A DNA stretch of 64,000 nucleotides, from the NCBI GenBank assembly GCA_963751645.1, contig CAVVVD010000008.1, forward strand, positions 13,480-77,479, read 5' to 3'. This DNA comes from Methanomassiliicoccaceae archaeon. GTDB lineage: Archaea > Thermoplasmatota > Thermoplasmata > Methanomassiliicoccales > UBA472. The notes beneath the pieces were generated by a model. It was not told where the DNA came from, ran no database searches, and saw only the letters and a list, made by a program, of their open reading frames with translations. Both the position numbers and the translations under genes were made by a program. Of this stretch, positions 1,874-31,894 are shown piece by piece; positions within the stretch are counted from its first letter, which is position 1, and every line of letters starts with the position of its first letter.

Positions 1874-2671
1874 TTATTGTTTGAACGTCAATGAGCGCGG
1901 GGACACATGTCTCTGATCGGTGACGACGACATCCACGAGGTCCAATGGTGTGAGCTCGAATATCTGGGTGAGCTCATGTAGGCCTTCGGACTCCATTTTC
2001 TTCCTTCCGAACTCCACATGCTCCAATGGGGCTATCTTGAGTTCGCTGCAGAGTACGTAGAACGTCTTCCCCGCGGTCATGGCGACCGTGGACAAGGCCC
2101 TCGTACCGACCTTATTGAACACGCCCATGGGGGTGATCGCATCCGCTCCAACTACGCAGCAGTCCACCTCGTCGATGACCGCGCCCATGAGGGCATCAGG
2201 GATGACCCTGACCTTGACCCCGTTCTTCATGAGCTTCTTGGCTGTGATCCGTCCCTCGGCCATGGGGAGCGATTCGGCGACCAGCACCTCGATCTCCCTC
2301 TCGCTCTTCAACATCAGCAGGGTAGCCATTACGGTGCTCGAATATGACAACGTGAGGAACTTCTCCCCCTGCGCGATATTGACAAAACGTGAGGCGATGT
2401 GGCTGGGGGCGTTGATCTCCTGATCGGTGCAGCGTTCCACCATGAGCGTGATGGCGTTGTTCCAGTTCTGAATGGCCGTGTTGGAGGCCAGTCCCTCGAT
2501 CTCCTTGGCGATGTTATAGAAGGTCGCTATACCGGGTCGTGCCATACGGACCTCCGTGGCGAACTCTACCCATTCGGCTCGCGGCACCGTCTGATTGTTG
2601 CTCAAGAAGGCACGAAGGTCCTGTAGCAATCTAGAGGTCATCTCCGATGCTCCGGACAGTCGAATCTCCAA
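1874..2671 (-). CDS. eIF-2B alpha/beta/delta family protein (aIF-2B-like or sugar-phosphate isomerase family)
   Basis: 265 aa. The core VLVAESLPMAEGRITAKKLMKNGVKVRVIPDALMGAVIDEVDCCVVGADAITPMGVFNKVGT is typical of the IF-2B family. Confidence 0.7.
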   Translation of the reverse strand: MEIRLSGASEMTSRLLQDLRAFLSNNQTVPRAEWVEFATEVRMARPGIATFYNIAKEIEGLASNTAIQNWNNAITLMVERCTDQEINAPSHIASRFVNIAQGEKFLTLSYSSTVMATLLMLKSEREIEVLVAESLPMAEGRITAKKLMKNGVKVRVIPDALMGAVIDEVDCCVVGADAITPMGVFNKVGTRALSTVAMTAGKTFYVLCSELKIAPLEHVEFGRKKMESEGLHELTQIFELTPLDLVDVVVTDQRHVSPRSLTFKQ

Positions 2672-2777
2672 TGATGGCGGTAATCATGGCCTGAAGGGCC
2701 GGTCTCATATTTGGAGAATATTCCTCCTTAAATAAGCTATTTGCATCGATATTATTGAAATGAATAATTAGGGAGGC

Positions 2778-3260
2778 CTAGGCCTCCACGTTGCTGACGA
2801 CCACCTCGTCCGAAATGGCCTCCAGTTCCGCCAGCTGTTTGTCATAATGGTTCTTGGGGTCCAGGCTGATGATGAAGTTATGACAGCAACCGTCGCTGAC
2901 GGTGGCATGGGCCCTCTTCAATATGTTCAACACAGGTCTGAATCCATTCCACATCTCTAGAACATCCAGGCCGTTGAGGACCACGATCCCGTTCTCGTTC
3001 TCCTTCAGGAACTGCTCCAAGTACCGCTCGAACATCTTGAGGTTCATGGGTGGTATGCAATCCTCATCTGGACGTGGAGAGAGCCACCTTGTGGTCAATG
3101 GCTCGTTCAGATTTATGAACTGGTTCTTGATCTGGTTCGGTGAATGCTTCGATATGTACAAGGCCGGGCGTCCCCTGGCCAGCTCCTTCCTCAACAATTG
3201 ATGCGTCCTCAATGGTACCCTCTCTTCGATCAGGTACATCTTACCATTGTCCAATTTCAT
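2778..3260 (-). CDS. DUF835-like domain protein (stand-alone)
   Basis: I prefer the internal start MKLDNGKMYLIEE at 3260 because a GGAGG Shine-Dalgarno-like motif lies just upstream on the coding strand. The sequence YLIEERV...TTRWLSP...NGIVVLNGLDVLEMWNGFRPVLNILKRAH...IISLDPKN...LAELE aligns by eye with the C-terminal domain of the IleRS ORF. Confidence 0.6.
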   Translation of the reverse strand: MKLDNGKMYLIEERVPLRTHQLLRKELARGRPALYISKHSPNQIKNQFINLNEPLTTRWLSPRPDEDCIPPMNLKMFERYLEQFLKENENGIVVLNGLDVLEMWNGFRPVLNILKRAHATVSDGCCHNFIISLDPKNHYDKQLAELEAISDEVVVSNVEA

Positions 3261-3564: not shown

Positions 3565-3996
3565 TCAATGGACCTCGGACGACTCCAACAGTGGGATGCC
3601 TATCTCCTGAAGCTTGCCCACGGCCTCCTCGATGCGGTCCACCCGGAGGATCAGGACCGCCCCATGCCTGGAGCTGTAGGCATAGCTGTAATCTATGTTG
3701 ATGTCAGCCTTACCCAACACCTCGGCCACCTCCCTCAGGCCACCAGGTCTGTCCTTCATGCGTACGGCGATGACATCGGTGGTCTTCACCATGAAACCGA
3801 GGTCCGACAGCTTCTTGCACGCCCTGATAGGATCGGACACCAATGCCCTTATCACACCGAACCCTTCTGCCTCAGCGATGCTGAATGCGTAGATGTCGAT
3901 AGACTCCCCTTCCATCGCCTGGGCGAACGCGGCGAGGCGTCCCGGCCTGTTCTCGGTGAACATCGATACCTGTTGAATGAGATGCTTCTTGACCAT
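3565..3996 (-). CDS. ACT domain protein
   Basis: 143 aa with two ACT-like halves (VSMFTENRPGRLA..., IAVRMKDRPGGLREVA...). Its start overlaps the paaK stop, a common paaK-ACT pairing. Confidence 0.75.
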   Translation of the reverse strand: MVKKHLIQQVSMFTENRPGRLAAFAQAMEGESIDIYAFSIAEAEGFGVIRALVSDPIRACKKLSDLGFMVKTTDVIAVRMKDRPGGLREVAEVLGKADINIDYSYAYSSRHGAVLILRVDRIEEAVGKLQEIGIPLLESSEVH

Positions 3997-5369
3997 CAGA
4001 TCTTCCTCCTATCAATGACCCGTTTCGCCTTTCCCTCGAACCGGGGGAGCGAATCCGGATTGGCCAGCTCGACCTCGACATTGACGTTCAATGAGGATCG
4101 TAACGCGTGTGTCACCTTCCTCTTGATGCGCATCAGGTCGTCGATACGGTCGCTGAAGTACTCCCTTTTTAGCTCGACGCGGACCAACATGTCATCCAGC
4201 TCGCCCTTGCGGTCCACCTCGATCATGAAGTGGGTGCCCACCTCGGGTATGGACATCAGGGAGTACTCTACCTGGGATGGGAAAACATTGATGCCACGGA
4301 TGATAAGCATGTCGTCTACCCTTCCTTGGATACGACCTATGCGGGGATGGGTACGGCCACAGGCGCACTCCTCCTCTTGAAGGGTGGTGATGTCACCGAC
4401 CCGATATCGGATAATGGGCAATGCCTCCTTCTGCAACATGGTGACCACCAGCTCGCCTCTCTCACCAGGTGCCACCGGCTCCTCGGTGTCGGGATCGATC
4501 ACCTCGACCAGGGCCAGGTCTCCCCAAACGTGGATGCCGCATTGCTCCTCGCATTCCGTGAAGAGCGGTCCCGAGAGTTCGCTCGTCCCATAGATGTCAT
4601 ATGCCTTTATTCCGAGGTCGTCCTCGATCCTCATGCGCATCCTTTCGGACCATGGCTCCGCCCCCAAGATGGCGCGGCGGAGCTTGGTGTCCTTGGCGAA
4701 GCTCACCCCCATCTTCTGAGCGACCTCGCCCATATGAAGAAGGTAGGATGGCGTGCAAGCTATGGCGGTGACCTGCATATCCATCATGAGCTCTATTTGC
4801 CTCTCGGTGTTGCCAACGCTCGCTGGTAGGACCGCGGCTCCGATGCGCTCAGCCCCATAGTGCAGGCCCAGACCACCGGTGAAGAGCCCGTAACCGTAGG
4901 ATACCTGGATCGTATCCGCCCTTCCCAGGCCACAGGATGAAAGCGCCCTGGCCAATGAGGTGGTCCAACCGTCCAGGTCGTGCTGGGTATATCCCACCAC
5001 CGTGGATTTACCTGTGGTACCAGAGGATGCATGGAATCTGACCACCTCGTCCCTCGGGGTCACGAAGAGCTTGTCCGGATAGTTGTCCCGGAGATCGCTC
5101 TTCACCATGAAGGGCAGCTTGGCCACATCGTCAAGGCACTGAATGTCGTCCGGATGGACGTTGGCGGCCTTCATCCGCCTTCGATAGAAATCGGAGAAGC
5201 TGTACAACTTGTAGACCAGGGTCTTCATCGATTTGAACTGGAGCGACTTCAGCTCCTCCCGGGGCATCTGTTCCATCCTTGGGTTCCAATAGCTGATGGT
5301 CTCACCTTCCGCCAGAGGTATTGGAGGGCGAACGCGTTGGCCCTTTATAACATTGACTAAAAATGTCAT
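3996..5369 (-). CDS. paaK: Phenylacetate-CoA ligase
   Basis: YWNPRMEQMPREELKSLQ..., AMP-binding motif SSGTTGKSTVV and YGTSE fit PaaK. The track ORF extends to 5444, but that extension overlaps the RNase P RNA 3' end. The start is therefore more likely Met at 5369 or 5384. Confidence 0.85.
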   Translation of the reverse strand: MTFLVNVIKGQRVRPPIPLAEGETISYWNPRMEQMPREELKSLQFKSMKTLVYKLYSFSDFYRRRMKAANVHPDDIQCLDDVAKLPFMVKSDLRDNYPDKLFVTPRDEVVRFHASSGTTGKSTVVGYTQHDLDGWTTSLARALSSCGLGRADTIQVSYGYGLFTGGLGLHYGAERIGAAVLPASVGNTERQIELMMDMQVTAIACTPSYLLHMGEVAQKMGVSFAKDTKLRRAILGAEPWSERMRMRIEDDLGIKAYDIYGTSELSGPLFTECEEQCGIHVWGDLALVEVIDPDTEEPVAPGERGELVVTMLQKEALPIIRYRVGDITTLQEEECACGRTHPRIGRIQGRVDDMLIIRGINVFPSQVEYSLMSIPEVGTHFMIEVDRKGELDDMLVRVELKREYFSDRIDDLMRIKRKVTHALRSSLNVNVEVELANPDSLPRFEGKAKRVIDRRKI

Positions 5370-5404
5370 GGCTGGACGTATCATGGTGCAACTGTTGCAA
5401 GGGC

Positions 5405-5700
5405 CAGGTGAGGGTAGTAGTCCCCCTTCTGTTTCAGGCGACATTCAACTAAGCGCCCTACCCGCCGGTCCTGAGATCGTCATTCCAGCTGTTTGGGCTT
5501 GCTCCGGTGGGGAGTCACCGTTTCACCAAATCCTCAGGGAACGTCATCGACAGACGAATCATCCTGCCCCCGAGACTGTGTCGTTTCTGCGTCCTTGCCT
5601 TGGCTCTCACCAAACCACTCGTGTGGTCCACCTTTCTCGTGGAGGAGGGAACTTCCTCAGCTGGGCTTGCGCCCTACCGTCAGTCGCCCTCCCTCTCCTG
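5405..5700 (-). ncRNA. rnpB: RNase P RNA (archaeal type-A-like)
   Basis: The reverse complement contains the universal conserved regions: GAGGAAGTTCC (CR-I-like GAGGAAAGUCC), GGTGAAACGGTG...ACTCCCCACCGGAGCAAGCCCAAACAG (compare E. coli ACUCCACCCGGAGCAAGGCCAAAUAG), GGGTAGGGCGCTTAG, and ACAGAAGGGGGACTA (CR-V-like ACAGAACCCGGCUUA). The termini pair as P1: CAGGAGAGGG with CCCTCACCTG. Confidence 0.75.
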
Positions 5701-5892: not shown

Positions 5893-5979
5893 GCAGGGGT
5901 AGCCAAGCCTGGCCAACGGCGCTAGATTGAGGGTCTAGTCCTTAGTGGTCCTTGGGTTCAAATCCCAACCCCTGCACCA
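5893..5979 (+). tRNA. tRNA-Leu (anticodon GAG), CCA encoded
   Basis: Acceptor GCAGGGG/CCCCTGC. Anticodon arm CTAGA-TTGAGGG-TCTAG. Long variable arm. T arm TTGGG-TTCAAAT-CCCAA. Discriminator A followed by CCA. Confidence 0.9.
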
Positions 5980-8178: not shown

Positions 8179-10518
8179 TCACTTCTTAGGTAGTTGACCC
8201 ATCTGTTGCTGTCCAGAGGGCGCGGTCCGTGCCTGGCCCTGCGGCGCTCCCATCTGCTTCTGGGGCCTCTTCGCCCCTCGCATCCGCGCTTTCTTTCGCC
8301 GGCGGCGCCTCATGACGAACCAAACTGCTACGGAACATCCTGCCAACACCACACCTAGGTAGAAGAACATGCTTCCCAGGATCTGCCAGATCAGGGACGC
8401 TTCCTCCTCGGGGGGTGGGAGGGGAGCTGTGGTCCCATTCACTGTAACGGTCGAAGGCCCGGTGCCGATGGCATTGACGGCGGCGACCTTGTAATAATAT
8501 GTCATACCGGTCCCGAGGTTCGAATTATTGAAACTGGTCAGGTTGACGGTGCGATAGTAGACCATTATATCAGGCATGACCCCTCGATATATCGCATAGC
8601 CAGTTATCGGTTGGCCACCATCTTTGATGGGGGCCTCCCAGCTGAGATAGATGCTATCGCTCCCATTGACCACCCGGAGGTCGAATGGCGCCGTCGGAAC
8701 CGTGCCATTTAGGTGGGGCTGTGCCGTCACCACGCTTGTGGCAGGTCCATAACCGATCGAGTTCTTGGCTTGGATATAGTAATGGTAGGTCTCACCGTTC
8801 ACGACGTCGGTATCAGCGAAGCTCGTCGAGGTGACATTGGTCAACAGGTCGAACTCTCCCACGGAGCTGCTGTTGGACCGATACACCGAATATAGCTGGA
8901 CCGCACTGGTCCCTGACTCGATCGGTTCCTTCCAGAAGAGCTGGACCGTTCCCTGCCAACCAAATGCCTGCAGATCGCGCGGCAACGTCGGTGTGCGACC
9001 GGACTTGATGGCCAGCTCGGCGCTCAAGACCCCTTCTCCAGCGCGATTCACAGCACTTATCCTATAGTAATATGTCTGGCCGATCTCCAGGCCGGCACTG
9101 ACATACTGAGTGTGATTGGTCGATCCAACGTAAGTTACCAGCCCCGAGGTGTCGCCCTTATAGATGTTGTACGTGAGGACAGACGCTCCCCCCAGATCGG
9201 AAGGGGCGCTCCAGTTCAAGACGATGTAATTGTCCTGGGGGACACCGACCAGATCGTTCGGCGAGGTCGGGGTGGTACACGGGGTGCAGTTCAGCGATTG
9301 GGACAGACCGACGCCGACCGCATTCTCGCCCGCCACGCGGTAGAAATAGTTCACGCCATTTTCCGCTCCGGCATCCACGTATCTTAGCACATTGCCCAAG
9401 GTGGCATACAAGATGGGATTCGTCTCGTTGGAACCGCGATAGATCCAATATCGGACCACCGAGGTACCCCCGTCATCGACAGGATACCAGAACAGCTCCA
9501 CGCTGTTGTCGCCGCCCTTGATCGCGTTCAGGGTGATGATGGGAGGTCCGAATGTAGCTGTGTATACGATGTAGCTCTTGGGACCATCCCCCACCTTGTT
9601 GAACGCGACGACCTGATAGAAGTAGGTGGTGTTGTCCTCAAGACCGATGTCGAGATAGGAATAGACGTGCTCGACGACGGTCAGGAATGTGATGTTGAGG
9701 GAGGAGTTGCCCCTGAATATCTTATAACCTAGGATCACGGAGCCCCCATTGGACACTGGGTCGTTCCAGACCAATGTGGCATTGCGCACCCCTTCCAGGA
9801 CTGCAAGGTCTCTGGTGGACCCCGGGATGATATCGGGGACACCTACCTCGGAAAGACTGACGGCACCCTCGCCTGCCAGATTGAAGGCGGCGATATGGTA
9901 GGTGTACGTATGACCGATTACCAGCAGGGGATCGATGAAGAAGGTCTGGTTGATGACCCTCCCCACCTCCACCCTGGGACCGGACTCGGACCTATAGATG
10001 ACATATCCAATGACTGGAGAGCCCCCATCGAAGTCGGGACCCGACCATGTGACGTTCATGAACATGTTCCCCGGAACCAGGCTGACCTGCCGGGGGCGAT
10101 TGGGGACGGTCATCGGCGTGGCGTTCAAAAGGTCGGACCGGGGACCTTCGCCAGCAGAGTTCACGGCGGAAACGGAGTAGAAATAGGTCTTGCCATTGAC
10201 CAGCCCGACATCCACGTAACCAGTGACATTGCCAAGCGTGACGATGAGCTCGAGCGTGATGTTTGTGTCTCCCCTATAGACGCGATATTCTGATACCCCC
10301 GAGGCGTTGCTATAGGCAGGAATGGTCCAGCTAAGGTCCATAGTGCCGTTCCCTGGTGTCGCTCCCACCAGTATCGGGCTGCTTGGAGCATCAGGGTCGA
10401 AGGCGAGGACCTGCGTCGGGAAGATGGTCAGCACCAAGGTCATCACCGTGACCATGGTCAATAGGGCGACCTTGCCGCTGACCGGGGACCGTTTCGATAG
10501 CATTGGTCTTGGCTCCAC
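8179..10518 (-). CDS. Cell-surface protein with seven fibronectin type III repeats, a C-terminal TM anchor and a basic tail
   Basis: 779 aa. N-terminal signal/TM segment (VALLTMVTVMTLVLTIF). Seven repeats each end in a Y-x-Y-x-[IV]-x-A-x-N-x-x-G-x-G motif (KTYFYSVSAVNSAGEG, HTYTYHIAAFNLAGEG, TTYFYQVVAFNKVGDG, ...). Many N-x-S/T sequons. TM helix plus an RRRRRKK tail. Confidence 0.8.
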   Translation of the reverse strand: MEPRPMLSKRSPVSGKVALLTMVTVMTLVLTIFPTQVLAFDPDAPSSPILVGATPGNGTMDLSWTIPAYSNASGVSEYRVYRGDTNITLELIVTLGNVTGYVDVGLVNGKTYFYSVSAVNSAGEGPRSDLLNATPMTVPNRPRQVSLVPGNMFMNVTWSGPDFDGGSPVIGYVIYRSESGPRVEVGRVINQTFFIDPLLVIGHTYTYHIAAFNLAGEGAVSLSEVGVPDIIPGSTRDLAVLEGVRNATLVWNDPVSNGGSVILGYKIFRGNSSLNITFLTVVEHVYSYLDIGLEDNTTYFYQVVAFNKVGDGPKSYIVYTATFGPPIITLNAIKGGDNSVELFWYPVDDGGTSVVRYWIYRGSNETNPILYATLGNVLRYVDAGAENGVNYFYRVAGENAVGVGLSQSLNCTPCTTPTSPNDLVGVPQDNYIVLNWSAPSDLGGASVLTYNIYKGDTSGLVTYVGSTNHTQYVSAGLEIGQTYYYRISAVNRAGEGVLSAELAIKSGRTPTLPRDLQAFGWQGTVQLFWKEPIESGTSAVQLYSVYRSNSSSVGEFDLLTNVTSTSFADTDVVNGETYHYYIQAKNSIGYGPATSVVTAQPHLNGTVPTAPFDLRVVNGSDSIYLSWEAPIKDGGQPITGYAIYRGVMPDIMVYYRTVNLTSFNNSNLGTGMTYYYKVAAVNAIGTGPSTVTVNGTTAPLPPPEEEASLIWQILGSMFFYLGVVLAGCSVAVWFVMRRRRRKKARMRGAKRPQKQMGAPQGQARTAPSGQQQMGQLPKK
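8434..10392 (-). repeat. Seven tandem ~90-codon FN3-encoding repeats inside the surface-protein gene
   Basis: Periodic recurrence of the W-x-x-P...Y-x-[IV]-Y-R...Y-x-Y-x-V-x-A-x-N motifs in the translation. Boundaries are approximate. Confidence 0.55.
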
Positions 10519-16610: not shown

Positions 16611-17321
16611 ATGAGCGCTCCCGAGACATACATAAGGACGAGGAATGAGATCGTCCGACTTACCAGTGGCATAAACGGATTGGACGATTCCATCGAAGGA
16701 GGGTTCCCCTTCCCTTCGGTGATATTGGTGGCGGGAAGCGCTGGGACAGGTAAGACCACCTTTGCGATGAAGTATCTGTGCGAGGGGGCCAAGAAGGGGG
16801 AGCAATGCCTTTACATAACCACATTGAGCGAGCCTACGCAGTGGATGATGCGATATGCAATGCAATTCGACTTCATGGACCCTGCCTATTTCGACGACCA
16901 GATCGTCTATATGGACCTGGGGGACAAGCTTCGGACCATGAAGTCCGAGGAGTTGCTCAACGCCATCGACGAGAAGATCGCGGAGGTGATGCCCCAGCGT
17001 ATCGTGATCGATCCCATAACCGTCATCGGGAACATGCTTGGTGGGGACTATCGGCAATTCCTCTTCGACCTGACCAACCGGCTGAAGAACTGGAACGCTG
17101 TGACCTTGCTAACTGGGGAAGTGAAGCCGAACGAGCTTTACCCCTCGGAGGTCGCCTATGCCGTCGATGGGATCATATTGCTACTCCTTTCGGACGAGGT
17201 GGTCACCAGGAGGAAGTATCTGGAGGTGCTCAAGATGAGAGGCACCAACCATGGCACTGGAAGGCAGCCCATCGATATCTCTCGAAGGGAAGGGATCATC
17301 GTCCTTAAGGCCAGGTTCTGA
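16611..17321 (+). CDS. KaiC-like / RecA-superfamily ATPase (single domain)
   Basis: 236 aa. LTSGINGLDDSIEGGFP, Walker A GSAGTGKTT, Walker B RIVIDPIT, and the C-terminal LEVLKMRGTNH motif typical of KaiC/RadA-like proteins. Confidence 0.8.
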   Translation: MSAPETYIRTRNEIVRLTSGINGLDDSIEGGFPFPSVILVAGSAGTGKTTFAMKYLCEGAKKGEQCLYITTLSEPTQWMMRYAMQFDFMDPAYFDDQIVYMDLGDKLRTMKSEELLNAIDEKIAEVMPQRIVIDPITVIGNMLGGDYRQFLFDLTNRLKNWNAVTLLTGEVKPNELYPSEVAYAVDGIILLLLSDEVVTRRKYLEVLKMRGTNHGTGRQPIDISRREGIIVLKARF

Positions 17322-23053: not shown

Positions 23054-23127
23054 GGGCTCGTAGTGTAGCTTGGATATCACAAAGGCCTCCGGAGCCTTGA
23101 ACCGGGGTTCAAATCCCCGCGGGCCCG
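23054..23127 (+). tRNA. tRNA-Arg (anticodon CCG)
   Basis: Acceptor GGGCTCG/CGGGCCC (one G-U pair). Anticodon arm AAGGC-CTCCGGA-GCCTT. T arm CGGGG-TTCAAAT-CCCCG. Discriminator G. Confidence 0.9.
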
Positions 23128-23426
23128 CTTCTCATCAATCGATCGTTCGGTCTATAATCGATCTCGTGTTGACCGTTCACGTTCCGTCACGTCAGCGTTG
23201 AGAATTGCCAATATGTAAAATGTTAATATCACCGAAACGATAATGGATGGGCGGAGCGGCCGAGCAGGAACACAACTCGACTACGAGGAGGAACGACCGC
23301 TCCGTGTTTCATCTTCATTTTCAGGTGTTAGGGTCATCGTGTGATACACCCTATCACGCTAAAGACAATCAAATAATGATATGTATTTAAAAAAATCGCA
23401 TCTTTTTCCCTGATAGCGAATGCTCG

Positions 23427-23573: not shown

Positions 23574-24743
23574 ATGTTTCTGAGCAGGGATGAGGAAGAA
23601 ATCCTAGCCGGTGAAGGAGGACCGGGACAACAGAGGGCGATGGAGCTCTTGGTCGCCCTGGGAAGGATCTATGATGCCAAGCGATTGGTACCTATAACCT
23701 CCGCCCATCTGTCAGGCGTTTCATATAAGACGATCGGTGAGGGTGGGATCGATTTCCTCATCGAGATGTCCAGGGATTCGAAGGTCAGGGTCCCCACCAC
23801 ATTGAACCCCATGGGCATGGACGCTGAGCGATGGAGCGAGATGCGCATCCCCGAATCGTTCGCAAAAAGACAGCTGGTCATCATGGACCGGTATGCCGCG
23901 CTCGGCGTGAGCACCACCTGCTCTTGCACTCCGTACCTGACCGAGAACGTCCCTCGTCAAGGGGACACCATCGCATGGGCCGAATCCTCCGCACTTTCCT
24001 TTGCGAACTCGGTCCTGGGAGCAAGGACGAACCGCGAGGGCGGTCCAGGGGCCTTGGCCGCAGCGATACTGGGTCGGACACCTTGCTATGGCCTGCATCT
24101 CGACGAGAACAGGGCACCCACCGTGGTCGTGGAGGTCGAGGGGGTAGAAGGCATTTTCGACCATTCCCTGTTGGGTCATGCCGTCGGTCAGACCACTGGA
24201 GGCTCGGTCCCATATTTCCGTGGTATCGCCCCAGACAAGGACGAGCTTAAGATAATGGCCGCGGCGATGGCCGCGGCGGGCAGCGTGGCCTTGTTCCACG
24301 TGGAGGGGTCAACCCCAGAGAGCGAAGGACATGACCTCAAGGGATTGGATATGGTCCATATCGGGAGGAAGGAGCTCGACGAGGTACGGTCGAGGTTAAG
24401 CGTGGAGGAGGAGCCGGACCTGATCGCCTTGGGCTGTCCTCACCTATCCGTTAGGGAGATGAGGGAGCTCGCCTCGATCACCAAGGGAAGGAAGAGGTCT
24501 CCGAAGGTCGAGGTGTGGTTCTGCACCTCCCGAAGCACAGCCTCTCAATGCCCAGAGGAGGTGGCCGCTTTGAACAGGTTCGGTAAGGTGGTCTGCGACA
24601 CCTGCATGATAGTGGCACCGATAGAGGGGACGCACAGGGTGACGGCCACCAACTCGTGCAAGGCCTGCTCCTATCTTCCCGGGCTATGCTCTCAGAAAGT
24701 TATGTGCCGTTCCGCCCCTCAGCTTCTGGAGATGATATCCTGA
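23574..24743 (+). CDS. Aconitase X catalytic (DUF521) subunit; in archaea, phosphomevalonate dehydratase large subunit
   Basis: 389 aa. PITSAHLSGVSY, TTLNPMGMD, CSCTPY, AWAESSALSFANSVLGARTNREGG are the DUF521/AcnX pattern. It is followed by the DUF126 partner. Confidence 0.8.
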   Translation: MFLSRDEEEILAGEGGPGQQRAMELLVALGRIYDAKRLVPITSAHLSGVSYKTIGEGGIDFLIEMSRDSKVRVPTTLNPMGMDAERWSEMRIPESFAKRQLVIMDRYAALGVSTTCSCTPYLTENVPRQGDTIAWAESSALSFANSVLGARTNREGGPGALAAAILGRTPCYGLHLDENRAPTVVVEVEGVEGIFDHSLLGHAVGQTTGGSVPYFRGIAPDKDELKIMAAAMAAAGSVALFHVEGSTPESEGHDLKGLDMVHIGRKELDEVRSRLSVEEEPDLIALGCPHLSVREMRELASITKGRKRSPKVEVWFCTSRSTASQCPEEVAALNRFGKVVCDTCMIVAPIEGTHRVTATNSCKACSYLPGLCSQKVMCRSAPQLLEMIS

Positions 24744-25519
24744 TCCTACAGGGCAGGTCGATATCCCGGGGCAGGGCCGAGGGGAAGGCGCTGGTCCTAC
24801 GTTCTGCATTCAGTTTCCTTGGTGGCGTCAGCCCCCAGACGGGCCTGCTCACGATATCAAGCGGAAGGGAGGGAGAGCCATTGGAAGGGAGGGTCTTCGT
24901 GTTCTCCCGAGGGAAGGGAAGCACGGTGGGTTCCTACACGCTGCTCGATCTGAGGAAGAACGGACACCTCCCCTCAGCGATAATAAACGAGAGTGCAGAG
25001 ACGATCGTGGCTACAGGGGCGGTAATGGCATCGGTACCGATGGTGGACGGGATCGACATCTCCTTGATAATGGACGATGACCAGTTGGTGGTCGATGGTG
25101 CCGAGGGCACCGTGGAGATCGTGGATGTCATCTTGTCCGAGGTGGTGACCTGTGTCTTGCGCCATGAGGGCAAGGTCCTTGCCCTGAAGCGGAGCGACAA
25201 GGTCTCCACCAACAAGCTGAAATGGGCTGGGGTCAGCGGATTCATCGAGAAGGGCGAGCAGCCTTTGGAGACAGCCTACAAGGAGATCGCGGAGGAGACT
25301 GGGATCGAGGACCCTCAGTTGATCAAGATTGGCAAGACAGTGATGGTACGTTCGGAGGGCAGGATATGGAAGGTGCATCCCTTCCTTTTCGATGTCGGAT
25401 CTCCCTTGGTGACCATAGACTGGGAGCATACTGACCACAGATGGCTCGCCCCAAGTGACCTAGATAATATGGACGTGGTACCAGGGTTCCGAAGGTTGCT
25501 ATCGGACCTAGAACTATGA
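24686..25519 (+). CDS. Aconitase X swivel (DUF126) small subunit fused to a C-terminal Nudix hydrolase domain
   Basis: The N-terminal half (GRAEGKALVLRSAFSFLGGV...GRVFVFSRGKGSTVGSYTLLDL...P.AIIN) is DUF126. The C-terminal half carries a Nudix box GFIEKGEQPLETAYKEIAEETGI. The start is uncertain (24656 or 24686, or a non-ATG start near 24740); it overlaps the end of the large-subunit gene. Confidence 0.7.
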   Translation: MLSESYVPFRPSASGDDILILQGRSISRGRAEGKALVLRSAFSFLGGVSPQTGLLTISSGREGEPLEGRVFVFSRGKGSTVGSYTLLDLRKNGHLPSAIINESAETIVATGAVMASVPMVDGIDISLIMDDDQLVVDGAEGTVEIVDVILSEVVTCVLRHEGKVLALKRSDKVSTNKLKWAGVSGFIEKGEQPLETAYKEIAEETGIEDPQLIKIGKTVMVRSEGRIWKVHPFLFDVGSPLVTIDWEHTDHRWLAPSDLDNMDVVPGFRRLLSDLEL

Positions 25520-25718: not shown

Positions 25719-26660
25719 TTAGTCCATTTTCATTGAGGCCGCTTCTAGGCGAGACGAAAAACAGATACCTGTCATTTTCTCCGATAGTTCCCATACCAGC
25801 TTAGCTAGAGCTAGGTCCCTTCCCTGTTTCTGGGGCGCTACTAGGACCGGATGACCTTTGAATTGCATCCAGCCATCAGGGCCGTAAAATTCACCACCTT
25901 TGACCGTCGGGTCCAAACACGCACGCAAAGCAGGCAACGACCCCTGAAAGATATCGTGCATGAAAGGCTTAAGACCCAAGCGCATCAGCTTTCTATGCCC
26001 ATAAAGGGAGGTGTCCACCAATCCAGGATGACATGCAACACAATGGGGCGATTCGATATCGTGAAGGTCCAACCTTCTCTGCAATTCTTGGGAAAAGAGC
26101 AGAGTGGCCAATTTGCTCTGCTTATACGCTTTCCAAGGGCTATAGTGCCGCTCCCAATTGATATCCTCAAAATTGATCGCCCCTCCACGATGGACGATGC
26201 TGGTCTGAATGACGACACGGGAGTCTCTTGTAAGCATTAGGAGATCGAGAAGATTGGCAGTGAGGAAGAAGTGCCCTAGATAATTCACTCCCCATTGCGA
26301 CTCATACCCTTGAACCGTCTTCGAATAGGGCAGTACCATGATCCCGGCGTTGTTTACTAGAATGTCGAGGGACCCATGCTTTGATCTAAAAGAATCGGCG
26401 AACCTCTTGACGGACCGTAGATCGGCCAGGTCCAACTCAATTACCTCTGGGGTAGCTCCCGGGATCGAGGAACGGATACTTTCGGCCACGGTGTTGGCCT
26501 TGGCGACATCTATGTCAGCCATGACCACTTGACCACCTTTCGAAGAAAGGACCTTTGTTATTTGCGCACCAAGACCTGAGGCGGCACCGGTAACTATCAC
26601 GGTTCGGCCCGAAATGTCCGGCATGGCCTCGAGGTCCCAATCTCCTCTGCGATCAGGCAT
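25719..26660 (-). CDS. Short-chain dehydrogenase/reductase (SDR)
   Basis: GRTVIVTGAASGLG (TGxxxGxG), NNAG, and the catalytic Y-x-x-x-K (YKQSK). The track ORF extends to 26714. Start choice is uncertain. Confidence 0.8.
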   Translation of the reverse strand: MPDRRGDWDLEAMPDISGRTVIVTGAASGLGAQITKVLSSKGGQVVMADIDVAKANTVAESIRSSIPGATPEVIELDLADLRSVKRFADSFRSKHGSLDILVNNAGIMVLPYSKTVQGYESQWGVNYLGHFFLTANLLDLLMLTRDSRVVIQTSIVHRGGAINFEDINWERHYSPWKAYKQSKLATLLFSQELQRRLDLHDIESPHCVACHPGLVDTSLYGHRKLMRLGLKPFMHDIFQGSLPALRACLDPTVKGGEFYGPDGWMQFKGHPVLVAPQKQGRDLALAKLVWELSEKMTGICFSSRLEAASMKMD

Positions 26661-26832
26661 TATTCGCCATATAGGTATCATTATTTGATAACAATTTGGC
26701 GGTTCTGGGCGCATTGCTCCCTAATCTGCGGAAATTTGATTTTTTAGGATGATCTTGTCATGAAAGCGCTTAGTCCATGTTATTCTGGCATGTCCGTATC
26801 AAGGACCGAATGAGAACCTCTTGGGCTCATCA

Positions 26833-27549
26833 TCAATCTCGCAGATCGAGGTCGATATGATCATGGTCTTCGCCTTCCAATTCCTCCACCTCAATTCTAT
26901 AATTTTGAATCGATAATGAATTGACCTGCCTTTCCGTCGACCTTATGATGGCCCTGTCCCTGGCGCTCTCCGCGGTATATCGCTTATGGCATTCATGACA
27001 GACGGTCTTGAGGTTGGTCGGATGGTCCGTCCCACCCTCGCTTCGAGGGATTATATGATGCACCTCGAGGCCCCTCAATTTCCCCGCGACGACCTGCCGT
27101 CCCTGGCGTCCACAATCCTGGCATGTGAACCTGTCGCGTCGCAAAATGGTGATGTGCACTCTCGGCCACAGCAAGCGCCGAAGCGCCTCGTCGCAGTCGT
27201 GGGAGAAGACCACTGTCCTGCTCCCATATAAGAAGAACTTCCGATCGCCCGCCATCCCCTTTTGATTCTCCCTATGGGAAGCCTTGAACATGTGCCATTC
27301 CTGGCAGAGCCTTCGGTTCAATGATCCCGGGGCGTGTCTCTTACCGCACCATTTGCAATGCACCGTACCACGGGAGTCCAATGGCGTCTCCTCGGCTCCA
27401 GCCACCTTGAAAGGGCACACCTTGAACATCGCTCCATCACATCGGAGCGGCCCACCCCGATCGATGCTCTGGAAGACCAAATCGAGGCCCCCGTTGTCCA
27501 GTTGACGATGCGATCCCAAGAGGCAATGCTCCCCTCCGGCACCGGTCAA
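26833..27549 (-). CDS. HNH endonuclease with an N-terminal Cys-rich region
   Basis: 238 aa. C-terminal DRFTCQDCGR...LEVHHIIPRSEGGTDHPTNLKTVCHECH is a canonical HNH motif. Confidence 0.75.
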   Translation of the reverse strand: MTGAGGEHCLLGSHRQLDNGGLDLVFQSIDRGGPLRCDGAMFKVCPFKVAGAEETPLDSRGTVHCKWCGKRHAPGSLNRRLCQEWHMFKASHRENQKGMAGDRKFFLYGSRTVVFSHDCDEALRRLLWPRVHITILRRDRFTCQDCGRQGRQVVAGKLRGLEVHHIIPRSEGGTDHPTNLKTVCHECHKRYTAESARDRAIIRSTERQVNSLSIQNYRIEVEELEGEDHDHIDLDLRD

Positions 27550-27628: not shown

Positions 27629-30600
27629 TCAGATCGTCCCGTCCACTTCCTTCTCCAACAGGTTCATCTCATGCGGGTCGAGGGTGGAAGGGTTCAGCAC
27701 CATCAGCAATATCGAATGGTTTATGGCCACCTGGTCACGCAACGACTGCAGGAAACGCAGCACGGTGAGGAAATTGTTGTTGGTGATCAGATATTCCAGC
27801 CCATCCAATAGGACGATTCCGCCGCCATTGCCCAGGAACGTCTCGAGGGAATATGACAGCTTCTCCAGGTCTTTGGGCCTCAGCGAGTTCTCCTTACCTA
27901 CGTTGGAGAGCCAGACGATCGGTGTCTCCCCGATGTTGTACTTGGCCTTGATCTTGACCGGATAGTTGCGGGTCACGCAATAGCCCTTCAGGCCCTTCCC
28001 GATCTCCTTCTCGAAATAGGCATAGGCGCGGTCGGAGCGGTCCTCCTTGATCAGGTAGCTGAAGGACCTCTCCAAATCCTGTATCACCATCATCTCGGCC
28101 ACTGGTAGCGCCTCCTCCTCGGTCTCCTCGGCCACTACCACTGGGGTGCCGCAGTTCGAACAGACCAACATGTCGGGGGCCACGGTCACGCCACACTTCT
28201 TGCAGGGGACGCTCTTCTCCAGGTTCCCCTCTGCCACGTACGCGAGGATGCTGTCGATCGTCTTCGTGCCCAGGCCCTTGACGTTCTGGAGGTCCTCCTT
28301 GCTTGCGTTCTTCAACTTCTCCGGGTTGAAGTAACCCGAATCGTAGAGCATCTCCGCCTTCAGATGGTTGACACGGGGTATGCGCATGAGCAACGGCAGC
28401 ATGCGTTCCTTCGGCAAAGGTTCGGAGGATGCGGAGCCCTTTCCGCATTTTGGGCATTGCCGCTGGGCGTCCAACAGACCGTTGCAGGATACACATCGGT
28501 CGGCCGACGCGTTCTGACGGGAAAGGGCATGGACGATCTTTTTGGCATCGGGCCTGGTCAGACCTGGGATCACCGCTAGCTTCTCCTCATCCAATTCACG
28601 GAGCGAGTCGACGGACCGGTATTCAGCGTCCACTAGTGCGAGCGCCATCTTCTGCGTCATCCCAGGGAGTTCCATGAGGTCCGAGATGGCGTCGCGGATG
28701 TGCAACGACGTTATGCCGAGCGAAAGCTTCTCGCCCTCGATGTCCCATTGGACCTTGTACTCCCCGCTGGGCTGGTTCATGAACTGCATGCGCCGGCAGC
28801 GCGTCTCTGACATGATGTGGTCCATCCAGACCTTCACATACTCCTCGATCTTGGCGGGGGCGTTCAGCTCCACGGCGATGAACTCCTCGACGTCGAGCTT
28901 CATGTCCTTCCTCATCTGTTGGATGCGGCGGATGAGTTCTCGGGAGTATCCTTCCGCCTCGATCTCGGCCGTGATCTGGAAGTCGAGGTAGATCTGTCCA
29001 CCGCTGTACTTCACGGCCATGACGTCGGGGGGCAATGCCGCCTCGAAGGATACCATGTTCGGTTCGATGCTCAGATACTGTCCTTCGATGCCGAGCTGGT
29101 ACTCGCCCTTCTCCACCGACTCCTTGATGAGGCGGGCGGGCCGCGACCGGAGCAGGACGGCGATCTTCGCCGCCCACTGGCGGTAGACCTTGCCGATGGC
29201 GTTGGGGTTCGGTACCACCGTGAGCACCGTCTCATCCCAGTCCTTTCCAGGTTCCACGTACTCGATGCGCTTCACGTTGGCCTGTTGCAGCAGGATGTCC
29301 TGCAGTGCCTTGACGGCCTCCATGGAGTCGGCGGTCTCGGGAAGGACAATCATCCTCTTCAATGGCCAGCGCAACTTGACCCCGCGGGTCTGACGCTCCC
29401 TCGTGACGATCTCCACGATCTCCTTGACCGTGTTCATCGAGGTCTCCAGACGCTCATCCAATTTGGTGAGGTCGGCGGTGGGCCAGTCGAGCATGTGCAC
29501 CGTGTCCTTGCTGCCGTCCATCGCACGGTACACCTGTTCGGTGATGTGTGGACAGACGGGGGCCAGCATCATGTTCAAGGATGCGATGGCGTCGAACAGC
29601 ACACGGTAGGCGGAAAGCTTGTCCAGGTCGCCCTCCTCGCTCCACATGCGGTCGCGGATGAGACGCACATACCAGCGGGACAGGTCCTCGAGGATGAACT
29701 CCTCCATTGCACGGGTCGCCTTGTGCATCTCGTAATTGTTCATGTCCCTGGTGACCTCGCTCTTGAGCTTCTCCACACGGGAGATGAGCCAGCGGTCCTC
29801 GGGACGGAGGTGGGACTCCAACTTGTCCATGGGCCATTCTGTCGATTCGAAGTTGTCTATCACCATGTAGGTGGTGGCGAAGTTGACCACGTTCCAAAAG
29901 ACGTTCAACATCTTCCGGGCGCTCTTGACCCCTTCCCATTGGAAGCTGGTGTCCTCCCATGGGGCGGACGCGCGCATCAGGTAGAATCGCAGGGCGTCAG
30001 CGCCATAGTCCTTGACCACCTTCTCCGGTTCGATGACGTTTCCCTTGCTCTTGGACATGGGCTGCCCATCGGGGTCCAGCATCCATCCGTGCATGAGCAC
30101 GCTCTCGTAGGGGGCCCGCCCGAAGGCCATGACGCCCGCGGCGAGCTGGGAATAGAACCATCCTCTGGTCTGGTCATGTGCCTCGCATATCCATTTGGCG
30201 GGCCATAGCCTCTCGAAGTCCGCCCGTTGGCGGGGGAAACCCAGCTGAGCCCATGAGGCCACGGCGGAATCGAACCATACGTCCAGTACGTCCGGTATGC
30301 GCCTCATCGTCTCCCCGCACTTGGGGCACTTCATGGTGACGCCATCGATCCAGGGCCTGTGCAGGTCCATGTCCCGGCGGAACCCGTCCGCCTTCTCTAG
30401 CTCCTCGGTGGTCCCGATCACCTTGATCTCGTTGCACTTCTGGCAGGTCCATATGGGCATGGGTATGCCCCAATAACGCTGCCGAGAGATGCACCAGTCC
30501 CGTGCGTTGGAGACCCAATCGTACTCTCTGGATGATCCGGCCCAGTCCGGGGTCCAACGGATCCGTTCCACCTCCTCGAGCATATGGTTCTTGACCTGGG

Positions 30601-31894
30601 AGACCTTGAGGAACCACTGGTTGGTGGTGCGGAATATTATCGGGGAGTTGCAACGCCAGCAATGACCATAGCGATGCGATAGCGTGGTGCGGTGGAACAT
30701 CCGGTCCTTCTCTTCCAGGTCCTGGATGATCATCTCGTTCGCCTTCTTGATGTGCATGCCAGCATAGCGCTGGCCAACGCTCTCCGTGTAGCGACCGGTC
30801 TCGTTCACCGGGCAGAACGGCTCTATGCCGTACTCCTTGCCGAGATCGAAATCCTCCGGACCGAAGCCCGGGGCGATGTGGACTAGCCCGGTGTTCGCCG
30901 CCTCGACGGTCTTGGATGGTATGACGCGATGCACCCATTTTCCCCGGACTTCCTTCTGGTATGGGACGGTCTCCTCGAAAATCGAGACATACTCCTTCCC
31001 TACCAGGTCGTCCCCCTCTATCTCCTCCAGGATGTCATACTTCTCCCAACCGGCCATCTCCCGGATCTGTTCGACCAGGTCCATCATCACTATGACCGTC
31101 TCGGTCTCGCCGATGCGCCGGTAACGCACCTTGGCGTAGCGGAAGTCGGGATGGGCGGCCACGGCCAGGTTGGCCGGGAGGGTCCACGGTGTGGTGGTCC
31201 AGATGAGCAGGAAGACCTTGGGGTCGTCGCGGAGCGGGAACTTGACATATATCGAAGGGTCCCGCTCGTCAGAATATTCGATCTCCGCCTCAGCGAGCGC
31301 CGTCTCGCATCGAGGACAGGAGGGAAGCACACGGTTGGCCGGTGCGAGAAGGCCCTTGTCATAGGCACGCTTCAGCGTCCACCAGGCCGCCTCGATGTAA
31401 TATGGAGCAATGGTGAGATAGGGGTTGTCCCAATCCATCCAGACCCCCAGTTCGGCGAATTGGACGTTCATCTTCTGCTGGAACTCCATGGCGAAGTTCT
31501 TGCAGGTGGAGACGAAGCGGTCGATGCCATACTCCTCGATCTCCTTCTTGTTCTTCACCCCGATGCTCTGCTCCACCTTCACCTCGATGGGGAGCCCGTG
31601 CATGTCGTAGCCGGGCCTGTCGAACACATTGTAGCGCTGCATGCGCCGGAAGCGGACATAGCTGTCCTTGATGGTCTTGTTGAGGGTCGTCCCCAAATGA
31701 ATGGCGCCAGTGGTGTAGGGCGGACCGTCTACGAAGTAGTAGTCGGGACCGCCGGACCTAAGCTCCTTAGTCTTGCGATAAGCATTGGTCTGTGCCCAGT
31801 ATTCCCGCACCTGCTTTTCCAGCTCGGCGGGGTTGTAGTTGCTCTGGATTGGCTTTATCATCGCCTTTTCCCTTCCTTGCCCAGAATATGACAT
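27629..31894 (-). CDS. ileS: Isoleucine--tRNA ligase with a ~357-aa C-terminal HhH / zinc-ribbon / DUF835-like extension
   Basis: 1421-aa uninterrupted ORF. HIGH-type PPYTTGAIHLGT, editing-domain TTTPWTLPAN, KMSKS-type PMSKSKGN. The core ends about ...WDIEGEKLSLGITSL (residue ~1064). The extension is described in the findings. Confidence 0.9.
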   Translation of the reverse strand: MSYSGQGREKAMIKPIQSNYNPAELEKQVREYWAQTNAYRKTKELRSGGPDYYFVDGPPYTTGAIHLGTTLNKTIKDSYVRFRRMQRYNVFDRPGYDMHGLPIEVKVEQSIGVKNKKEIEEYGIDRFVSTCKNFAMEFQQKMNVQFAELGVWMDWDNPYLTIAPYYIEAAWWTLKRAYDKGLLAPANRVLPSCPRCETALAEAEIEYSDERDPSIYVKFPLRDDPKVFLLIWTTTPWTLPANLAVAAHPDFRYAKVRYRRIGETETVIVMMDLVEQIREMAGWEKYDILEEIEGDDLVGKEYVSIFEETVPYQKEVRGKWVHRVIPSKTVEAANTGLVHIAPGFGPEDFDLGKEYGIEPFCPVNETGRYTESVGQRYAGMHIKKANEMIIQDLEEKDRMFHRTTLSHRYGHCWRCNSPIIFRTTNQWFLKVSQVKNHMLEEVERIRWTPDWAGSSREYDWVSNARDWCISRQRYWGIPMPIWTCQKCNEIKVIGTTEELEKADGFRRDMDLHRPWIDGVTMKCPKCGETMRRIPDVLDVWFDSAVASWAQLGFPRQRADFERLWPAKWICEAHDQTRGWFYSQLAAGVMAFGRAPYESVLMHGWMLDPDGQPMSKSKGNVIEPEKVVKDYGADALRFYLMRASAPWEDTSFQWEGVKSARKMLNVFWNVVNFATTYMVIDNFESTEWPMDKLESHLRPEDRWLISRVEKLKSEVTRDMNNYEMHKATRAMEEFILEDLSRWYVRLIRDRMWSEEGDLDKLSAYRVLFDAIASLNMMLAPVCPHITEQVYRAMDGSKDTVHMLDWPTADLTKLDERLETSMNTVKEIVEIVTRERQTRGVKLRWPLKRMIVLPETADSMEAVKALQDILLQQANVKRIEYVEPGKDWDETVLTVVPNPNAIGKVYRQWAAKIAVLLRSRPARLIKESVEKGEYQLGIEGQYLSIEPNMVSFEAALPPDVMAVKYSGGQIYLDFQITAEIEAEGYSRELIRRIQQMRKDMKLDVEEFIAVELNAPAKIEEYVKVWMDHIMSETRCRRMQFMNQPSGEYKVQWDIEGEKLSLGITSLHIRDAISDLMELPGMTQKMALALVDAEYRSVDSLRELDEEKLAVIPGLTRPDAKKIVHALSRQNASADRCVSCNGLLDAQRQCPKCGKGSASSEPLPKERMLPLLMRIPRVNHLKAEMLYDSGYFNPEKLKNASKEDLQNVKGLGTKTIDSILAYVAEGNLEKSVPCKKCGVTVAPDMLVCSNCGTPVVVAEETEEEALPVAEMMVIQDLERSFSYLIKEDRSDRAYAYFEKEIGKGLKGYCVTRNYPVKIKAKYNIGETPIVWLSNVGKENSLRPKDLEKLSYSLETFLGNGGGIVLLDGLEYLITNNNFLTVLRFLQSLRDQVAINHSILLMVLNPSTLDPHEMNLLEKEVDGTI

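Follow-up and report, generated by a model that had tools for sequence, protein, structure and literature searches.

In the stretch of DNA analysed here, a window of 64,000 nucleotides from a Methanomassiliicoccaceae archaeon, the gene for isoleucyl-tRNA synthetase (IleRS), ileS, extends well beyond the synthetase itself. A single open reading frame (ORF) of 1421 codons plus stop, with no internal stop (27629..31894, minus strand), encodes a complete type-2 IleRS and, in one unbroken frame, a C-terminal appendage of helix-hairpin-helix (HhH) units, putative zinc ribbons and a DUF835 domain. The likely annotated start is Met12 at 31861, giving the 1410 aa of a database copy that is 100% identical (P0121), and over residues 18-859 the protein scores 959.6 bits with the NCBIfam ileS equivalog TIGR00392, for which the cut-off is 621.4. 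An earlier note, made from the sequence alone, had described an uninterrupted frame of this length with a synthetase core ending near residue 1064 and five elements behind it, and this description holds: the Pfam domains tRNA-synt_1, Anticodon_1 and DUF5915 together span residues 30-1062, in agreement with the proposed end of the core, the five elements are present, by Pfam and CxxC motifs, in the order that the note gave, and every peptide string quoted was found in the translation. Positions 27629-28702 correspond to residues 1065-1421 plus the stop codon, that is, to a tail of 357 residues.

The core (residues 1-1064; 28703..31894, minus strand) is a complete IleRS of the type-2 (archaeal/eukaryote-like) form by Pfam, NCBIfam and PDB matches, the best of the last being 1ILE, 8C8U and human IARS1. 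It comprises, all on the minus strand, the Rossmann fold with the CP1 editing domain (tRNA-synt_1, residues 30-648), the anticodon-binding domain (Anticodon_1, residues 700-847) and the C-terminal DUF5915 (residues 865-1062). Of the editing motifs, WTTTPWT is invariant in 119 of 119 clade members and TG-VH-AP-G-GPED is invariant or nearly so across the clade. The counterpart of the HIGH signature is HLGT at residues 66-69 (31687-31698, minus strand), aligned to HVGH of 1ILE, and H-[LIV]-G-T stands in place of HIGH in 118 of 118 members of the fused clade; the counterpart of KMSKS is PMSKS at residues 612-616 (30049-30063, minus strand), aligned to KMSKS of 1ILE, with [AP]-M-S-K-S in 111 of 119. 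The second lysine and the remainder of each signature are retained. Judged by its domains and editing motifs, the catalytic, editing and anticodon-binding parts look intact and the body looks fully functional. Compared with canonical type-2 enzymes (T. thermophilus 1ILE, P. megaterium IleRS2 8C8U and human IARS1), the whole core from the Rossmann fold to DUF5915 is held in common, whereas the window protein has 357 more C-terminal residues with four or five extra domains, and the signatures read HxGT and [AP]MSKS throughout the fused clade.

The fusion is a property of a lineage and not of one assembly. When the whole protein was searched against 5.8 billion sequences and the 120 best matches were considered, DUF835 (PF05763) was found in 119 of the 120 closest IleRS proteins (50-74% identity, 1301-1446 aa), the sole exception being a partial protein on a 3.9-kb contig; a survey of this kind had been suggested in the earlier note. 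The carriers are Methanomassiliicoccales and other Thermoplasmata metagenome-assembled genomes (MAGs), together with the cultured Methanomassiliicoccus luminyensis (1301 aa). The nearest relatives, also Methanomassiliicoccaceae archaeon, share 93% identity in the core and 84-88% in the tail, and in an alignment of 120 tails (the window and 119 homologues) DUF835 is present in 120 of 120. A scan of GTDB with one genome per species found relatives of the tail in 187 genomes, and among the 80 loci kept the tail lies directly behind the IleRS core in 80 of 80. The earlier note had named a frame error at the junction as a possible refutation, but the junction is not a frame error: an uninterrupted frame of 1370-1500 codons is present in 61 of these 80 loci, from the genomes of different species, and a further 8 end at a contig edge. 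In the remaining 11, frameshifts or a stop interrupt the frame at scattered positions that are not homologous to one another, and the IleRS core stands immediately upstream; isolates named 'MFD' account for 8 of these loci, and in two of those isolates many other genes are split as well. At position 2715 of one locus from a short-read MAG (L022), an otherwise full-length fused ileS has an in-frame TAA where the window has Tyr, to be explained either by an error of sequencing or by a nonsense mutation of recent date.

The suspicion that a missed stop or frameshift has joined ileS to a separate HhH-DUF835 gene draws on the many database proteins of 200-620 aa, named 'DUF835 domain-containing proteins', that resemble stand-alone tails. 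In genomic context, all five of those that were checked (P0006, P0023, P0034, P0037 and P0044) proved to belong to the fused gene, from which long-read indels, a scaffold gap of 10 N's or an odd gene call within an open frame of 1417 codons had severed them, and a free-standing HhH-DUF835 ancestor or paralogue was rejected on this count. With 61 independent assemblies showing an unbroken frame and the tail under in-frame purifying selection, an artefact is next to inconceivable, and for the lineage this explanation is refuted. A truncated form was also considered as a functional sensor paralogue lacking the catalytic domain: a 611-aa gene (L001, 8001-9836, GCA_041320395.1) whose product begins within the anticodon-binding domain and runs on through DUF5915, the HhH units and DUF835. 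No catalytic domain lies upstream, an opposite-strand EamA gene being there instead, and the upstream synteny is lost; with the break falling inside the anticodon domain, the gene is probably a rearrangement or a mis-join in that MAG, and a paralogue of this kind is the less likely reading.

Within this lineage the tail varies in length and composition around a fixed terminus. Homologues bear zero, one or two zinc ribbons, and the M. luminyensis tail, of only 247 residues, is the shortest version. In the other direction, distant IleRS-DUF835 fusions of 1644-2329 aa (P0363-P0367, P0370) place 450-1130 extra residues between the core and DUF835, among them extra or double zinc ribbons and also TPR repeats, inserted after the HhH units and ahead of DUF835; one long fusion is in addition extended at its N-terminus by about 130 aa. 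In every case, the long relatives included, DUF835 occupies the extreme C-terminus. The appendage is lineage-wide and vertically inherited, and it has been carried since before Methanomassiliicoccales split from related Thermoplasmata.

The domain at that terminus (residues 1275-1421; 27632..28072, minus strand) has a predicted, minimal KaiC/RecA-like alpha/beta fold. Its naming as DUF835 in the earlier note is confirmed by profile search (PF05763 at residues 1286-1416, E=4.4e-33, 114.4 bits against a cut-off of 33.1, 132 of 136 profile positions), and the accompanying description of a KaiC/RecA-like domain without a P-loop agrees both with a confident fold model that lacks one and with the literature, in which DUF835 is classed as 'iKaiC', a KaiC-like domain that has been inactivated (Galperin et al. 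2018, PMC5847659). Modelled alone, the domain reaches a pLDDT of 93.7 and a pTM of 0.89. Foldseek against the PDB relates this model with probability 1.00 to FlaH/ArlH (4YDS; E=1.1e-6, TMq 0.69, RMSD 3.5 Å), to the KaiC-like PH0284 (2DR3; TMq up to 0.74) and to KaiC; RecA (TMq 0.6-0.65), Rho and the BcsE chain of E. coli cellulose-secretion (Bcs) complexes are also matched. BcsE carries a degenerate RecA-like domain. The best structural matches are thus the single-domain KaiC-like proteins FlaH/ArlH (4YDS, 4WIA) and PH0284, at TMq 0.69-0.74 and RMSD 3-4 Å, yet these are ATP-binding proteins of about 230 aa with a Walker A motif, whereas DUF835 spans about 147 aa and has no P-loop.

The absence of that motif is consistent throughout the family. 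A pattern search for Walker A ([AG]xxxxGK[ST]) found it in the DUF835 domain of 0 of 120 tails, 0 of 120 stand-alone proteins and 0 of 135 representatives; seven matches elsewhere in tails were rejected, all of them lying in HhH units or linkers. The P-loop position reads E-[DE]-[KR]-[PS]-[ED]. A Walker-B-like [IV][VI]LLD-G-L-E is retained, with D1364 in 118 and E1367 in 120 of 120 tails, and at more than 20 DUF835 positions all 120 of 120 sequences agree; these positions fall within the motifs C-V-T-R-N-Y-P, W-L-S-N-V-G, R-P-K-D-L-E-K-L and D-G-L-E-Y-L-I-T-N-N-N-F. Pfam KaiC (PF06745) gave no match to the DUF835 tail at E<=0.1; an attempt to link the two at the level of sequence, in which hhalign compared the DUF835 alignment with a KaiC-like protein encoded in a related genome, was silent, so that only fold comparison shows the relationship. 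A PDB sequence search with the tail profile matched IleRS C-domains and HhH proteins and nothing for DUF835. Because Walker A is missing and neither Pfam KaiC nor hhalign gives a match, DUF835 is, on the fold model, a shortened KaiC/RecA fold that has lost the P-loop and sits outside the ATPase families.

DUF835 itself is a large family (2771 clusters at 50% identity, E<=1e-3), and the company it keeps elsewhere is instructive. It forms the C-terminus of proteins of 700-1050 aa with PEGA, CARDB or CarboxypepD_reg domains upstream (P0376-P0460), where it is 40-50% identical to the IleRS copy; presumably they act as sensors in the membrane or at the surface, with DUF835 on the cytoplasmic side. 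It also occurs in response regulators of the REC-DUF835 and REC-PAS-PAS-DUF835 types in Methanomicrobia and Thermoplasmata (Galperin et al. 2018, PMC5847659). With the latter the IleRS tail shares the Pfam family PF05763, the C-terminal placement and the same taxa, although what stands upstream is an IleRS with HhH and zinc spacers and no receiver or PAS input domain.

Selection bears on this domain as strongly as on the enzyme and its active site. Across the clade, identity to the window is 69-74% in DUF835, 60-76% in the Rossmann halves, 49-66% in the anticodon domain and 26-52% in the HhH units. When the window's copy is taken as the reference and compared with the more distant half of the clade, DUF835 heads the order at 69%, ahead of the Rossmann halves (60-63%), DUF5915 (56%), the editing domain (52%), the anticodon domain (49%) and the HhH units (26-33%). 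Comparison with two close relatives gives a dN/dS of 0.034-0.043 in DUF835, of 0.05-0.06 in the core and of 0.10-0.11 in the HhH, zinc and linker stretch. By these sequence comparisons DUF835 is the best-conserved part of the tail.

What lies between the core and this domain is more loosely kept. A first (HhH)2 domain (residues 1070-1126; 28517..28687, minus strand; HHH_5 at 1071-1124) is present in 119 of 120 aligned sequences and is modelled at pLDDT 94-98; its sequence relatives are the RadA N-terminal region of PRK04301, the N-extension of haloarchaeal eL32, the NusA AR and the Rad51/RadA NTD. A second (HhH)2 domain (residues 1161-1222; 28229..28414, minus strand; HHH at 1192-1219 and HHH/HHH_2 at about 1188-1223) is present in 113 of 120, is absent from M. 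luminyensis, is modelled at pLDDT 95-97 and resembles the Hel308 C-terminal region (NCBIfam). Over the tail as a whole, Pfam HHH_5 (PF14520) scores 68.9 bits against a cut-off of 27 in two stretches. Each HhH domain is followed by a putative zinc ribbon. The first, CVSC-x9-CPKC (residues 1134-1151; 28442..28495, minus strand), is known from its motif, is lineage-specific and found in only a subset of homologues, and is modelled at pLDDT 74-85 with isolated strand or bridge residues; the second, CKKC-x10-CSNC (residues 1231-1249; 28148..28204, minus strand), is likewise a motif assignment and optional among homologues, is modelled at pLDDT 91-95 and is the only CxxC set touched by Pfam Zn_Ribbon_1 (residues 1231-1252), at 19.4 bits and under the cut-off of 25. 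The two CxxC sets themselves lie at residues 1134-1150 and 1231-1248, and the strands in the ribbon models are short and reduced to isolated residues. An acidic linker, predicted to be disordered (residues 1252-1274; 28073..28141, minus strand; net charge -7), leads to DUF835; it has 20-27% identity among homologues and a pLDDT below 50 at tail residues 193-203. An AlphaFold2 model of the whole tail has a mean pLDDT of 91.6 and a pTM of 0.55, and this low figure, set against 0.89 for DUF835 alone and combined with the poorly modelled linker, suggests that the tail is a string of well-folded beads on a flexible thread.

The order of these beads recalls the recombinases, and this raises the possibility that the tail is a degenerate RadA/Rad51-like DNA-binding module that would bring IleRS to DNA for a second, moonlighting function, for instance the autoregulation of transcription or a connection with repair. 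RadA and Rad51 have the same succession of an N-terminal (HhH)2 and a RecA-fold core, which is why they are the top whole-tail Foldseek matches (270-310 columns over HhH and core, E down to 2.5e-6); the NCBIfam RadA models touch the first HhH unit, and FEN1 is the conserved upstream neighbour of the gene. Several observations speak against it. The RMSD of 18-20 Å means that only the layout is common to the two, the order of domains being shared and their arrangement not; the RadA models score far under their cut-offs (PRK04301 23.7 against 259, TIGR02236 16.1 against 361) and reach the N-terminal HhH part only; and the adjacency of FEN1 is simple synteny of housekeeping genes. DUF835 taken alone ranks RecA below FlaH and PH0284, it has no ATPase motifs and, at about 147 aa, is shorter than a RecA core of about 230 aa, and the tail is acidic. 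We regard a DNA-binding module as very unlikely.

Alternatively, the tail could be a cis-acting extension that binds RNA, the HhH units and possibly also the RecA-like DUF835 holding on to rRNA or to the backbone of the tRNA and either raising the affinity for tRNA-Ile or tethering the enzyme to the ribosome for channelling, in the manner of the Arc1p/EMAPII/Trbp111-type and lysine-rich synthetase extensions. The tail begins directly after the C-terminal DUF5915, the glycines of the HhH hairpins are conserved in 106-112 of 120 aligned sequences, and the best PDB sequence match other than IleRS (E=1.8e-7) is to the HhH extension at the N-terminus of the haloarchaeal ribosomal protein eL32, which supplies a precedent for an HhH unit on the translation machinery. 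However, the HhH units are the least conserved of the folded parts and carry a median charge of -2 in a tail that is net acidic overall, the second unit and the zinc ribbons are dispensable in some lineages, and the strongest constraint falls on DUF835, which occurs elsewhere in signalling proteins without any link to RNA. The likeness of the two HhH units to NusA AR1/AR2, Hel308 domain 5 and the eL32 N-extension is one of sequence, and unlike in those proteins the units here are poorly conserved spacers between synthetase and DUF835. RNA binding as the purpose of the tail is therefore unlikely, if by no means far-fetched.

The constraint on DUF835 might also be explained if the domain were a small-molecule sensor, its former nucleotide pocket binding a nucleotide-like or amino-acid-derived signal and tuning IleRS allosterically in cis with no protein partner. 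The invariant polar residues cluster in the loops after beta-strands, where RecA-fold proteins bind nucleotide, and include the Walker-B-like Asp and the motif E-Y-L-I-T-N-N-N, and in the more distant group the conservation of DUF835 exceeds that of the catalytic domain. Direct allostery is hard to reconcile with the disordered acidic linker and the variable spacers, from 100 to more than 1000 residues, that part DUF835 from the enzyme body, and we know of no function and no ligand for any member of the DUF835 family. A sensor acting in this way seems to us quite improbable.

The reading we favour, with middling confidence, is that the tail is a flexible docking or signalling arm that ties a housekeeping IleRS to protein partners, with DUF835 as its functional head. 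The head would act without ATP hydrolysis and would bind protein partners or self-associate, as the ring-forming KaiC, FlaH and RecA folds do; candidate partners would be another DUF835 protein, a KaiC-like ATPase or a translation factor. The HhH and zinc units, and the TPR repeats of the longer relatives, would serve as spacers or secondary contact modules, and the consequence would be an IleRS held in, or reporting to, a higher-order assembly, so that tRNA-Ile charging might be coupled to signalling or to translation control. The regulation, tethering or moonlighting function proposed in the earlier note is likewise an inference. Several strands of evidence recommend this interpretation. DUF835 is C-terminal elsewhere in response regulators and PEGA/CARDB-type proteins; its nearest folds are oligomeric, partner-binding proteins, and no ATP binding through a P-loop is available to it; it is constrained over its whole length, as domains with several interfaces are; the spacers are variable, acidic and sometimes equipped with TPR repeats; and the HhH units resemble the NusA AR as much as they do the DNA-binding RadA N-domain. 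The NusA AR and the RNA polymerase (RNAP) alpha-CTD are protein-contact domains, and the match of the latter to the HhH units is sub-threshold (E 0.09-0.19; Pfam 14.2 bits against a cut-off of 23.8). Other observations pull away from a docking arm: the classical role of HhH motifs is to bind nucleic acids, and the glycines of the hairpins are conserved here, the best fold matches of the whole tail are the DNA binders Rad51/RadA, and the highly conserved polar residues (CVTRNYP, WLSNVG, RPKDLEKL, DGLEYLITNNNF) would also fit a small-ligand pocket.

Possible partners for such an arm are encoded in the same genome. A stand-alone, single-domain DUF835 gene (2778..3260, minus strand; E=7e-15) encodes 160 aa from the Met at 3260 in an ORF that is open to 3326. 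The earlier note had seen its likeness to the IleRS domain by eye; the two are 33% identical (E=5e-14), and both are DUF835. Its orthologues, of 157-160 aa and 54-98% identity, occur across Methanomassiliicoccales, several of them on the same contigs as a fused ileS, and in the stand-alone protein the Walker-B-like Asp is replaced by Asn. A local HMM search of the window found no third copy. The stand-alone protein is best regarded as a separate conserved orthologue and a candidate partner in trans, not as part of the fusion. The second possibility is a single-domain KaiC-like ATPase of 236 aa (16611..17321, plus strand; PF06745, E=9e-44), about 10 kb from ileS. One relative (L002) has a KaiC-family gene of similar size at a distance of about 7 kb from its ileS tail; the link between the KaiC-like gene and ileS is loose synteny through housekeeping genes.

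Directly downstream of the stand-alone DUF835 gene lies a gene of the IF-2B family (1874..2671, minus strand; E=1.7e-32) that is aIF2B-like: its best PDB match is 1VB5 (P. horikoshii aIF2B), then eukaryotic eIF2B alpha, ahead of sugar-phosphate isomerases. The same-strand pair recurs in 40 of the 61 metagenome loci with enough downstream sequence, separated by an approximate gap of 74-186 nt (window 1874-3260, minus strand; L086-L090, L093-L170), while its flanks vary: an ACT gene upstream of the stand-alone DUF835 is kept in only 3 of 56 metagenome loci, and a ribonucleotide reductase follows DUF835 in at least one locus without the pair. Because DUF835 is in this way linked to translation twice in one genome, by the fusion and by a conserved gene pair, it is tempting to imagine an archaeal counterpart of the GCN2-eIF2B circuit by which eukaryotes respond to amino-acid starvation, assembled from other components. 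The charging state of tRNA-Ile would be reported by the IleRS body, and its DUF835 head would pair with the stand-alone protein or with the KaiC-like ATPase, whereby translation initiation would be tuned. The support for this idea is circumstantial, and we hold it to be highly improbable.

Whatever its partners, the tail extends a familiar principle. Non-catalytic synthetase appendages are regarded as mainly eukaryotic, wiring synthetases into complexes and signalling. The fusion shares with the eukaryotic WHEP, GST-like, EMAPII and UNE appendages, with the IleRS-GNAT fusion of bacteria (NCBIfam NF040702) and with GCN2 and its HisRS-like sensor domain the joining of a synthetase body to a protein-contact or regulatory module; unlike all of these, it uses different domains and belongs to a different domain of life. 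To our knowledge, none of those appendages uses a KaiC/RecA-like domain. The earlier note had held that this was not a described IleRS architecture. This is right as regards the literature searched, where no published description of an IleRS-DUF835 or IleRS-HhH fusion was found (Makarova et al. 2017, mBio, on KaiC-like domains not covered), and so far as it can be checked the fusion is undescribed there; it needs amending as regards public databases, where the architecture is abundant under the plain name 'isoleucine--tRNA ligase'. An essential archaeal synthetase thus carries a P-loop-less KaiC-like module that is otherwise found in response regulators and PEGA/CARDB-type proteins, and DUF835 gains a defined, essential fusion partner. 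With that partner, and with the shortest tail in the cultured M. luminyensis, the function of DUF835 becomes experimentally approachable. If the tail does connect tRNA charging to regulation, it would represent a new kind of archaeal translational control.

The surroundings of the gene follow a conserved order, FEN1, fused ileS, AcnX/NUDIX. The last of these joins an aconitase-X swivel domain (small subunit) to a domain of the NUDIX hydrolase type (24656-25519, plus strand), a fusion conserved in the relatives L001, L002 and L084. Where ileS ends in relatives (L001, L002, L084, L091), the AcnX-swivel/NUDIX gene begins no more than a few bases away; in the window an HNH endonuclease gene (26833-27549, minus strand) and a short-chain dehydrogenase gene (25719-26714, minus strand) lie in between, and together (25719-27549) they look like a two-gene insertion. 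No tRNA-Ile lies beside ileS, the two tRNAs of the window being tRNA-Leu(GAG) at 5893-5979 and tRNA-Arg(CCG) at 23054-23128. An archaeal RNase P RNA (5406-5699, minus strand; 224 bits) overlaps the first 13 or so codons of a 482-aa ORF (3996-5444, minus strand) whose 433-aa orthologue in L086 matches AMP-binding, so that the true start of this gene is probably further in. Finally, the minus strand at 8179-10518 encodes a protein of 779 aa that contains five fibronectin type III repeats and is presumably located at the surface.

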